64,000 nucleotides of DNA, taken from NCBI RefSeq assembly GCF_000027125.1, contig NC_017626.1. One strand, written 5' to 3'. Shown piece after piece: positions 3,243-3,651 of this stretch. Source of the stretch: Escherichia coli 042. Its GTDB lineage: Bacteria > Pseudomonadota > Gammaproteobacteria > Enterobacterales > Enterobacteriaceae. Both the position numbers and the translations under genes were made by a program. Position 1 is the first letter of the stretch, and every line of letters begins with the position of its first letter. The notes below the pieces were generated by a model that was not told where the DNA came from, searched no databases, and was given only the letters and a program-made list of their open reading frames with translations.

Positions 3243-3510
3243 CCCCTCATTGTTGGGCAAATATTGGTAGAGTCAGAGCACGAAAGTTAATACCACGTTC
3301 GCACAGCTCCTCCAACAGCACGGCAAGATGCCGCATACTGCGCCCCAGTAGGTTCAGTTTGCAGACAACCAGTGTGTCACCTACCGATAATGTCCTGAGC
3401 CGTTTGTTCAGTCCGGCCCTGCTGCCACGGTTTTACGTTGAAGTGGTAACCCTGAGCACGCAGTTCATCAGTCAGGCATGGTGCACCATAACGCTGTTGT
3501 TGCTGGGTAA
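3243..3510 (-). pseudogene. pinH: Decayed serine recombinase (Pin/Hin-type DNA invertase) remnant
   Basis: Minus-strand translation of ~3260-3378 gives DTLVVCKLNLLGRSMRHLAVLLEELCERGINFRALT, matching the conserved resolvase/invertase core (GDTLVVWKLDRLGRS...RGI.F.SLT). Flanking frames are broken by stops and shifts; no start codon or catalytic-serine region is intact. Confidence 0.65.
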
Positions 3511-3618
3511 GATCAAAAAACTTTCAGGCAGCTAAGGAAAGTTGAATCAGACATTAGATGAAATATTTCAACCAATTACAGCACCAATTTAAACTCAGTA
3601 AATCACAGCGCAGATCAA

Positions 3619-3651
3619 GGGGTTACGTGAAAGCGTAGCCCCTTTTTCTTT
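3619..3651 (+). terminator. Intrinsic terminator-like hairpin on the plus strand (9-bp GC-rich stem, loop TGAAAG, then TTTTTCTTT)
   Basis: ggggttacg-tgaaag-cgtagcccc followed by a T-tract. No plus-strand gene is annotated upstream. Confidence 0.45.

Follow-up and report, generated by a model that had tools for sequence, protein, structure and literature searches.

The hairpin beside the pinH recombinase remnant of Escherichia coli 042 is, judging from its homologies, very probably a displaced terminator of the tmRNA gene ssrA. We refer to the whole 64,000-nucleotide stretch of DNA that was analyzed as the window; within it, positions 3533-3670 would represent a fossil attR that carries this terminator, set among layered debris at the ssrA integration hot-spot. 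The locus is the E. coli ypjA–pinH–ypjB/C–ileY region, and each of its pieces was identified and the junctions between them were given coordinates (Table 1). We would like to note that the locus is ordinary genomic debris and that this kind of relic is already known.

Table 1. Features of the ypjA–ypjB/C interval, in window coordinates.
Feature	Position	Strand	Basis
ypjA/ehaD, 5' part; adhesin-like autotransporter gene	1..2855	-	PGAP annotation of strain KE55; truncated by the window's left end
Small conserved ORF between ypjA and the pin fragment	2920..3039	-	PGAP hypothetical protein WP_001120794.1
pinH pseudogene; internal core, from a serine DNA invertase of the Pin/Gin/Hin type (residues ~39-93 of ~190)	3272..3420	-	Pfam, Gin structures, DNA homology
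IS3 scrap; nt ~543-622 (start of orfB/insF) and left-end tip, nt 1-16	3421..3515	-	blastn against K-12 IS3B
Probable right-end remnant (attR arm) of a CP4-57-like element (P4-type integrase family)	3533..3587	+	Local alignment
Probable decayed copy of the ssrA 3' end (3588-3607) and 8-9 nt trailer (3608-3616)	3588..3616	+	Alignments among lineages
Intrinsic terminator; 12-bp stem AAGGGGTTACGT / GCGTAGCCCCTT, GAAA loop (3617-3644), T-tract TTTCTTTGG	3617..3653	+	Terminator scan
Far edge of the conserved block flanking ssrA (…GTAGTAGCAGCAAAATGG)	3654..3670	+	End of the homology shared with phage attP sites and with copies next to ssrA
Frameshifted ypjCB gene, ypjB/ypjC (DUF5508/DUF5507), on the right-hand side of the fossil attR	3789..5243	-	ORFs 3789-4886 and 4896-5243

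Strain KE55 is 100% identical to window 2850-3780, and in KE55 the ssrA 3' end lies 160 bp past the ypjA stop, on the same strand and ~1.9 kb to the left of window position 1. The actual ssrA 3' end of this lineage is found ~5.5 kb left of the fossil attR, and the interval between the two contains only ypjA (b2647 in K-12), one small ORF, the 149-bp invertase core and a 95-bp IS3 scrap. No integrase was found between ssrA and attR in KE55, and the element is a fixed remnant, of which ypjA is the main surviving cargo. The small ORF is 39 aa long per PGAP, or 67 aa if begun at an upstream ATG at 3123, and retrieved no family match in Pfam or NCBIfam. On the other side, ypjB/ypjC matches DUF5508 (E=5e-137) and DUF5507 (E=3e-55) in Pfam; ypjCB is labelled "frameshifted" by PGAP and is frameshifted in many strains. 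The locus is carried by roughly 3000 genomes; the form seen in the window, at an identity of at least 99%, is present in about 105 of the 5426 E. coli genomes, which makes it that of a minority lineage. A copy of the remnant on plasmid pLR-25_3 is a fragment of this same locus bounded by IS1/IS3 and is uninformative as to the origin of the remnant.

The recombinase remnant is the known E. coli pseudogene pinH (b2648 in K-12, where it occupies the homologous position between ypjA and ypjB), here fused to the IS3 scrap. The original prediction described it as an invertase core deprived of its catalytic N-terminus and its C-terminus and anticipated a resolvase match in a profile search, and both points were borne out. 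The minus-strand translation of about 3250-3432 (61 aa) matched the Pfam Resolvase family PF00239 above cut-off (E=2.3e-8; 34.7 bits against 23.3) over profile positions 48-100 of 145, and in the Gin invertase (193 residues; PDB 3uj3 and 4m6f) only residues 39-93 could be aligned to it, with E=1.8e-13. The catalytic Ser9/10 is missing, as the alignment begins at Gin residue 39 (profile position 48), and the C-terminal half is gone together with helix E and the HTH DNA-binding domain, with a stop codon following 7 codons past the end of the Gin homology. PGAP labels the remnant as "missing N-terminus and C-terminus". Alignment to the intact pinE, hin and gin genes, which had been suggested as a way to reconstruct what was lost, confined the DNA homology to window 3272-3420; over these positions only, identity to pinE and phage invertase genes is 82-88%, and the closest intact relatives are pinE-type genes at 85-88%. 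Measured against the serine recombinases (Pin/Gin/Hin/Cin), the remnant thus has the homology and lacks the catalytic serine, a complete domain, the C-terminal domain and an intact ORF. The conserved KLDRLGRS motif has become KLNLLGRS, and the sense-frame pN/pS of the fragment is 0.8-3.1, that is, about 1 or above, which we read as a signature of decay. Full-text literature searches for pinH turned up nothing beyond noise and gene lists.

The N-terminal break of the remnant is a junction with IS3 orfB sequence. Window 3510-3420 aligned to IS3 531-622 at 87% identity (E=1e-27), and the piece from nt ~543-622 (window 3421-3510) encodes a 21-aa peptide fused directly to the pin fragment. The tip of the IS3 left terminal repeat (nt 1-16) lies upstream of this orfB piece at window 3515-3500 with 16/16 positions matching, and the IS3 and invertase junctions could both be located to the base. 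The scrap retrieved a weak Pfam match to HTH_21, and over 1400 plasmids carry IS3 copies that are ~89% identical to it. Of the 1258 nt of IS3, only the IRL tip (nt 1-16) and nt ~543-622 are left; orfA, the catalytic part of orfB and IRR are gone, through an internal deletion of about 525 bp and the loss of everything 3' of nt 622, and what is present here is a fragment, not an element. The IS3 fragment at the N-terminal break and the position of the locus just downstream of ssrA were both overlooked by the original prediction.

The plus-strand terminator is strong, as had been claimed. Its fold has a minimum free energy of -23.7 kcal/mol against -10.6 ± 2.5 in shuffled sequences (z = -5.3; 0 of 200 shuffles as stable), 6 of the 12 base pairs of the stem are GC, and the stable GC-rich stem-loop is followed by a T/U tract, as in intrinsic terminators. 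Terminator-like sites as such occur in the region at the frequency expected by chance (2 seen vs 1.8 expected); this one is set apart by the strength of its stem and by its homology to a known terminator. The distance of about 100 bp from the remnant needs correction, since the end of the invertase homology (3420) and the start of the hairpin (3617) are ~197 bp apart. The figure of 100 bp is true only when measured from the end of the IS3 scrap (3515).

The homology in question is to the sequence that follows ssrA. Window 3609-3670 is 95-97% identical to sequence right after ssrA in some E. coli strains, and in GPEC1054 and L3_E36 this block is found directly 3' of ssrA with an identical or near-identical hairpin. 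In two E. coli strains, sequence starting 6 nt past the point where ssrA is annotated to end matched the stretch 3614-3670 at 96.5% (NZ_CM142793.1, just 3' of ssrA) and 87% identity; when aligned, ssrA…CCACCA-AATAAATC-hairpin-…AAAATGG is collinear with the window and K-12 copies. The block, comprising the ssrA 3' end and the terminator, also recurs at 92-99% identity in over 30 phage records, which include Fels-2, SopEΦ, RE2010, SEN8, Cartapus and 500465-1 as well as Klebsiella, Yersinia and Cronobacter phages. The annotated attP of Fels-2 includes the ssrA-derived core, which makes up the first 23 nt of the match, and window 3614-3670 is 94.7% identical to positions 23357-23413 of phage Cartapus. 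As in an attR, the distal sequence is therefore what follows ssrA elsewhere, namely in GPEC1054, L3_E36 and phage attP sites. Terminators of ssrA borne in attP were reportedly treated by Williams in the Journal of Bacteriology in 2003.

Upstream of the hairpin, the position and strand of the pieces relative to ssrA are those required of an attR. Window 3516-3616 aligned to the last 200 nt of K-12 CP4-57 with a score of 23, compared with 9.6 ± 1.5 and a maximum of 15-17 in shuffles, and the K-12 copy of the locus aligned to the CP4-57 right end with a score of 36; homology to the end of a known ssrA-integrating element, as in an attR arm, is present over the last ~55-75 nt upstream of the ssrA fragment. 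A recognizable ssrA 3' fragment lies directly 5' of the hairpin in K-12, Sakai, VTB96935v, E62, C10, GF50 and JNE112863 (e.g., CTGCCAGC-CCACCA). In K-12 this copy reads TTCAGTCACTGCCAGC-CCACCAAATAAATC against TTCAACTCCCGCCAGCTCCACCAAATAAATC in ssrA itself, and K-12 and Sakai carry the single-T deletion GCCAGC-CCACCA, which is a listed signature of P4-integrase elements at ssrA (PMC10107115, Table 1). In the window allele the fragment is barely recognizable, with a TTYAAACTC-like trace only: compared with K-12, a patch of ~25 nt has been rewritten over it, and about 14/25 positions are unlike all other alleles. Because the ssrA-derived 20 nt of the window are too diverged to be recognized alone, the assignment as a fossil attR rests on other lineages and on the flanking homologies. 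The window-type allele over the ssrA fragment is present in 119 of the 5426 genomes, and no donor for the patch was found in the window or elsewhere in E. coli genomes.

We also searched the 5426 E. coli genomes for an empty site (ssrA-terminator-ypjB), using as a query a chimera of the ssrA 3' end, the terminator block and the ypjB flank. There were 0 places at which at least 80% of the query was covered, and the best matches reach just 15 nt into the ssrA fragment in VTB96935v, whose architecture is the same as that of the window. Since these genomes hold no empty site, the ancestral state is one that we infer rather than observe. A scan of genome contigs for the block/ypjB junction pattern retrieved a single contig, which belongs to a Planococcaceae MAG and is a K-12-like E. 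coli contaminant there; it is uninformative about other species. In K-12, CP4-57 and its own attR (psaA) sit between ssrA and ypjA, so that three successive ssrA-type terminators are found there.

A strong hairpin might instead end an unannotated plus-strand transcript today, either an antisense RNA or the mRNA of a 122-codon ORF at 3167-3535. The original prediction proposed such a transcript as its second explanation and held that there was no plus-strand gene to terminate, which is true of the curated K-12 annotation but passes over this ORF, part of which (3374-3535) PGAP calls a hypothetical protein in KE55. The ORF is open in 8/8 divergent alleles, promoter-like hexamers lie just 5' of its ATG (at 3117-3146, with 10/12 matches, and at 3149-3177), and the thermodynamic strength of the hairpin would allow for some residual use. 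However, the ORF is a shadow frame of two former genes, where few stops are expected; its peptide is highly variable among strains and has no family in Pfam or NCBIfam, and its pN/pS of 0.37-1.36 is in the same range as the 0.44-0.72 of a stop-containing non-coding frame, so that we rejected it as a gene. The promoter-like sites are likewise at the level of chance (13 seen vs 10.0 ± 3.1 expected). The K-12 homologue of the hairpin is at 2,783,490-2,783,517 of NC_000913.3, and the Term-seq tables of PMC7815308 (LB and M63; three growth conditions) contain no 3' end at 2,783,xxx on either strand, with the ssrA 3' end at 2,755,955 present as a positive control; the TERMITe tables have no entry for the hairpin. 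With the hairpin and T-tract mutated without compensation in several strains, and with the origin of the block fully accounted for by homology, we consider it improbable that the terminator now ends such a transcript.

The hairpin could also serve the minus strand, as a terminator or 3' stabilizer of the ypjB/ypjCB transcript, whose stop codon is 140 nt upstream on that strand. The minus-strand RNA folds too (-16.7 kcal/mol, z -3.4), and in K-12-type alleles a moderately T-rich GATTTATTTGG follows the hairpin. In the window, however, the minus-strand tail is GATCTGCGCTG, without a T-tract; the terminator scan calls the site for the plus strand alone, many strains have a frameshifted ypjCB, and the lack of a K-12 Term-seq 3' end extends to both strands. 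We regard a minus-strand role as very unlikely.

A third use for the hairpin would be to end a small regulatory RNA gene within 3540-3651. A scan of 2400-6600 against Rfam 15 (E≤1) retrieved the ileY tRNA, a spurious antisense "Plastid-ycf2" match on the ileY tRNA and, as the sole match at the hairpin, a sub-threshold BjrC68 at 3579-3651 on the plus strand (21 bits, E=0.036). This score is far under the gathering score of 39, BjrC68 is a Bradyrhizobiaceae family, and the match most likely reflects the terminator hairpin alone; a small RNA was thus rejected. There is no promoter-like site in 3516-3616, and the sequence upstream of the hairpin, the most variable part of the locus, is accounted for by a CP4-57-like end and an ssrA fragment. 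The chance that a small RNA gene ends here appears negligible.

A displaced ssrA terminator, a leftover of an ancestral arrangement as the first explanation of the original prediction would have it, is also the reading that fits the variation among strains. The hairpin or the T-tract is mutated without compensation in K-12/Sakai, C10, GF50 and JNE112863, and we take this as a signature of decay. Most likely the terminator no longer sees regular use, and it would be a structurally intact yet evolutionarily unconstrained relic. We give a low probability to a partly active relic, in which either the terminator stops plus-strand transcription from the AT-rich, H-NS-type ypjA–pinH interval or the K-12-type alleles act as a secondary att site. 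Candidate sources of such transcription are the promoter-like sites at 3117-3177 or IS-borne promoters. If the former were true, an antisense RNA would span the scraps of pin and IS3, and ypjCB and ileY would be shielded from convergent read-through; if the latter, GCCAGC-CCACCA of the K-12 type would be open to ssrA-specific integrases, and the ypjA islet could be mobilized or deleted along with CP4-57-like neighbors.

The following history would produce the locus as it is now. Elements that target the ssrA 3' end bring a replacement ssrA 3' end and terminator in their attP, and each new integration shifts the previous pair beyond the incoming element, to its attR on the far side. The hairpin and T-tract would formerly have terminated the ssrA precursor transcript, as the same block still does in the strains and phages where it stands directly after ssrA, and mobile elements inserting into ssrA would have displaced the terminator by about 5.5 kb. 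An IS3 insertion into the right end of the CP4-57-like element at 3515/3516 would then have been followed by a deletion that joined IS3 nt 622 to invertase codon ~40, removing the invertase N-terminus and anything between, by a second deletion of IS3 nt 17-~542 and by a third breakpoint at ~3271, with which the C-terminal half of the invertase would have been lost. The order of these events is the one we infer. Either the CP4-57-like element or a P2-like prophage of the same array may have supplied the invertase, and the terminator type may originally have been native to the chromosome or phage-borne; were it native, the block after ssrA would, without a prophage, run on into TTGTAGTGT…/ypjB-like sequence. 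A single Fels-2/Cartapus-like prophage was considered as the joint source of the remnant and the terminator, since such phages have both features, and was not supported in that form: its lysogen would place the block on the ssrA side and 8 kb from the invertase, whereas the block here is on the far side behind the CP4-57-like arm, and the remnant is nearer to pinE-type genes (85-88%) than to the invertases of these phages (77-78%).

These observations are chiefly of use for annotation. The interval is labelled only "pinH" or "recombinase family protein, partial" in K-12 and thousands of E. coli genomes, and it is sometimes given a spurious antisense "hypothetical protein"; our results support a fuller parts list of invertase core, IS3 scrap, CP4-57-like end, ssrA 3' fragment and ssrA terminator. 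The fossil attR would mark the outer boundary of an old ssrA-integrated islet bearing the adhesin gene ypjA/ehaD, and with the boundary at this position ypjA would therefore be island cargo. The locus offers a compact example of tmRNA-gene integrations leaving used terminators behind and raises no new biological question.

The pinH locus of K-12 MG1655 is the same locus, collinear with window 2830-3800 at 95% mean column identity, and the invertase core and IS3 scrap as well as the ssrA fragment and hairpin are present in both; the two diverge by ~11% in the invertase part, and the K-12 RefSeq record annotates pinH only and leaves IS3 scrap, ssrA fragment and terminator unmarked. A parallel to the proposed attR is psaA (b4645) of K-12, the attR of cryptic prophage CP4-57 and a duplicated, damaged ssrA 3' end on the far side of that element. 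In both, the right end of an element is followed by a GCCAGC-CCACCA-type ssrA 3' fragment on the strand of ssrA, and the ~60-75 nt upstream are homologous; the ΔT damage is the one given in PMC10107115, Table 1. Unlike the window locus, psaA belongs to a largely intact, excisable 22-kb prophage with its integrase (intA); in the window the element is cut to about 5.5 kb without an integrase, another terminator type follows, and the ssrA fragment is nearly erased in this lineage.

The P2-like ssrA-integrating phages carry the same spacer, hairpin, T-tract and …AAAATGG block in their attP/attL, and Cartapus, Fels-2, SEN8, 500465-1 and Kp4865-2 encode a Gin/Pin-type invertase with 77-78% identity to the remnant. 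In the phages, however, an intact ssrA 3' segment of 45-47 nt precedes the block, which lies between the phage genes ogr and int, and in Cartapus the invertase is 8 kb away from it; in the window the block stands behind a CP4-57-like arm and a decayed ssrA fragment, with ypjB as its flank. Tandem islands with ssrA direct repeats at their far boundary have been described, in which successive integrations gave rise to a series of downstream ssrA 3' repeats and older islands were fixed after loss of the integration module (PMC3146451). Those islands occur in other organisms and involve other integrase families; unlike them, the locus in the window has kept a recognizable transcription terminator, and IS-associated deletions would have shrunk its island to a few kb.

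The original prediction of a resolvase/invertase core on the minus strand, lacking both its N-terminus and its C-terminus, was upheld by profile search. The translated pin remnant retrieved a match to Pfam Resolvase (E=2.3e-8, profile positions 48-100 of 145) and aligned to residues 39-93 of the Gin invertase (193 residues; PDB 3uj3, 4m6f; E=1.8e-13). DNA likeness to intact pinE, hin, and gin genes of plasmids and phages (77-88%) is confined to window 3272-3420, and the remnant is therefore without the catalytic serine, helix E, and the HTH domain. Its conserved KLDRLGRS motif has decayed to KLNLLGRS, and the pN/pS of its sense frame between strains (0.8-3.1) fits the expectation for a pseudogene. 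This remnant is the already known pseudogene pinH. The N-terminal half of the fragment (3350-3425) shows divergence several-fold above that of the ypjA-proximal spacer (~11% between the window and K-12), and nonsynonymous changes are overrepresented in its sense frame (pN/pS as high as 3.1, from small counts); gene conversion with the paralogues pinE, pinQ, or pinR could account for this. A further copy of the remnant was found on plasmid pLR-25_3 (NZ_AP027503.1, a 14-kb record; 3001-3204 of the extracted sequence). It takes in the IS3–pin junction and the small ORF between ypjA and the pin fragment and is bounded by IS1 and IS3; either IS mobilisation of a chromosomal fragment or a misassembly would explain it.

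The N-terminal break of the remnant is an IS3 scrap, which the original prediction overlooked. Nucleotides 531-622 of IS3 (the start of orfB) lie at window 3421-3510 on the minus strand with 87-89% identity, and the IS3 left-end tip, TGATCTTACCCAGCAA, matches window 3515-3500 at 16/16 positions. Read along the minus strand, the order is IS3 nt 1-16, IS3 nt ~543-622, and the invertase from codon ~40 onward, which points to an IS3 insertion at 3515/3516. The inserted element would then have dropped ~525 bp internally, and one deletion would have taken the N-terminus of the invertase together with all of IS3 past nt 622. At its C-terminal side the invertase is broken at a separate junction, ~3271.

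The plus-strand hairpin beside the remnant is, as predicted, a strong terminator: it folds at -23.7 kcal/mol, whereas shuffles average -10.6 ± 2.5 (z -5.3). With the pinH–ypjB spacer (window 3522-3788) as query, the locus was found in 3037 genomes, and extra short matches spanned precisely 3614-3670 (96.5% and 87% identity). Both begin 6 nt past the annotated 3' end of the tmRNA gene ssrA in strains with a P2-like prophage there, and an alignment of ssrA…TTCAACTCCCGCCAGCTCCACCA-AATAAATC-hairpin-TTTTTCTTTGGTAGTGGCGGCAAAATGG is collinear with the orphan copies of the window and K-12. The terminator block (3609-3670) is also found at 92-99% identity in >30 records of ssrA-integrating P2-like phages, including SopEΦ, RE2010, SEN8, Cartapus, and 500465-1 as well as phages of Klebsiella, Yersinia, and Cronobacter. 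In the Fels-2 prophage record the block is at the left end, and its opening 23 nt, which form the ssrA-derived core, carry the annotation "part of prophage attP". The orphan hairpin is therefore a terminator whose normal place is directly behind ssrA. Williams, in J Bacteriol in 2003, reportedly noted that conserved att-site sequences of enterobacterial ssrA elements appear to act as ssrA terminators. An empty site (ssrA–terminator–ypjB) was found in 0 of 5426 E. coli genomes, and a single scan of other species' genomes returned solely an E. coli contaminant; this terminator type may therefore have been either native or phage-borne at the outset.

Judging from the surrounding sequence, the terminator lies within what would be a fossil attR, the far-side junction of an element integrated into the ssrA 3' end. 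Ahead of the K-12 hairpin stands TTCAGTCACTGCCAGC-CCACCAAATAAATC, in which a damaged ssrA 3' end (the final 23 nt) is followed by the trailer, and such a fragment is kept in 7 of the 8 aligned lineages. The single-T deletion, GCCAGC-CCACCA, is listed in PMC10107115 Table 1 as the signature of the attR copies that elements with a P4-type integrase, among them the K-12 cryptic prophage CP4-57, leave behind at ssrA. Over the 60-75 nt upstream, the sequence aligns with the CP4-57 right end, through that prophage's own attR, psaA (the K-12 copy scores 36 and the window 23, versus 9.6 ± 1.5 for shuffles). The ssrA gene is on the same strand as the orphan hairpin. In strain KE55, which is 100% identical to window 2850-3780, ssrA lies 160 bp past the ypjA stop and ~5.5 kb from the hairpin, and CP4-57 is absent. 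In K-12, CP4-57 is intercalated, and there are therefore three successive "ssrA terminators": a CP4-57-borne one directly after ssrA, one after psaA, and one after the pinH-proximal ssrA fragment. PMC3146451 gives a general description of this pattern for arrays of islands at ssrA. The proposed leftover of an ancestral arrangement is thus upheld and can be made specific; it is a relic of a known kind beside a known pseudogene.

The window's own allele is rewritten over the ssrA fragment and trailer: within ~25 nt (3589-3613), ~14 positions differ from all 7 other aligned lineages, while the flanks are 90-100% identical. The attR identity in this lineage therefore rests on the flanks and sister alleles. 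The rewritten allele is carried by 119 of 5426 E. coli genomes, only at the pinH locus, and neither the window nor the rest of the E. coli genomes holds a donor copy; damage to the att site by an integrase, or a complex templated mutation, could have produced it. Separately, the sequence directly after ssrA in KE55 (positions 945-1110 of the extracted sequence, ~1.7-1.9 kb beyond the left edge of the window) reads ATCATGATTGGACGGTG…, ends in the hairpin AAAGCCCACAGATGTGGGCTTTTT, and is the same as the sequence after psaA in K-12. This stretch sits between the convergent ssrA and ypjA, and so may terminate both.

We found no evidence of present use of the orphan terminator. K-12 Term-seq tables (PMC7815308; NC_000913.3 coordinates) contain the ssrA 3' end at 2,755,955 but, for both strands, no entry at 2,783,xxx, where the K-12 hairpin lies (2,783,490-2,783,517), and the TERMITe tables have no entry for it. 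Among 8 alleles, uncompensated pair-breaking stem changes occur in K-12/Sakai (G11→A), C10 (G19→A), and GF50 (G3→T, G19→A), the T-tract is altered in JNE112863, and hairpin conservation is not above that of the adjacent arm. Promoter-like sites occur at chance frequency, and Rfam yielded only a sub-threshold match on the hairpin. The antisense ORF is open in 8/8 divergent alleles, and PGAP calls part of it hypothetical protein WP_000075277.1 in KE55. Its pN/pS of 0.37-1.36 matches that of a stop-containing frame (0.44-0.72), and neither Pfam nor NCBIfam has a family for it. It therefore has the look of a shadow ORF, cast by two former genes, and is likely an annotation artefact. Together with the stem changes and the Term-seq tables, this leaves the alternative proposal, the end of an unannotated antisense transcript, unsupported.

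Window 2850-3780 is matched over at least 80% of its length in 3002 of 5426 complete E. coli genomes. The equivalent K-12 MG1655 interval (ypjA (b2647), pinH (b2648, pseudogene), ypjB, ypjC, ileY) aligns collinearly with 95% column identity. The small ORF is kept across strains and has no family; one genome names it "ATPase", implausible for 39 aa. A frameshift likewise splits ypjCB in K-12, into ypjB and ypjC; the gene is intact in some strains (e.g., VTB96935v) and has internal stops in others, and seems to be undergoing repeated decay across lineages. The ileY tRNA is read as Ile after lysidine modification; a sub-threshold Rfam "Plastid-ycf2" match on its antisense strand was dismissed as spurious. 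In K-12 ygaQ is a pseudogene, and frameshifts or stops interrupt it in several further strains.

Features at and around the pinH locus (window coordinates)
Feature	Position	Strand	Description
ypjA/ehaD	start ~2855	-	autotransporter
Small ORF	2920-3123	-	between ypjA and pin fragment; 39 aa by PGAP (WP_001120794.1), 67 aa to upstream ATG
Antisense ORF	3167-3535	+	122 codons; antisense to pin and IS3 scraps
pin remnant	3272-3420	-	annotated [quoted passage not shown], between small ORF and ypjCB
Intrinsic terminator	3617-3644	+	12-bp stem, GAAA loop, then TTTCTTTGG
ypjCB, frameshifted	3789-5243	-	DUF5508/DUF5507; 365-aa and 115-aa ORFs
ileY, tRNA-Ile(CAU)	5995-6070	-	ARAGORN label: Met, anticodon CAT
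ygaQ, alpha-amylase family	6630-8882	+	intact 750-aa ORF

A single prophage could be thought to have brought both the invertase and the terminator block, as Cartapus-type phages carry both, like the window locus. Unlike in the window, however, the two are 8 kb apart in these phages, a lysogen would have the block towards ssrA, and the remnant is closer to pinE-type genes than to the invertases of these phages. This geometry and the higher pinE-type similarity argue against a simple single-prophage origin.
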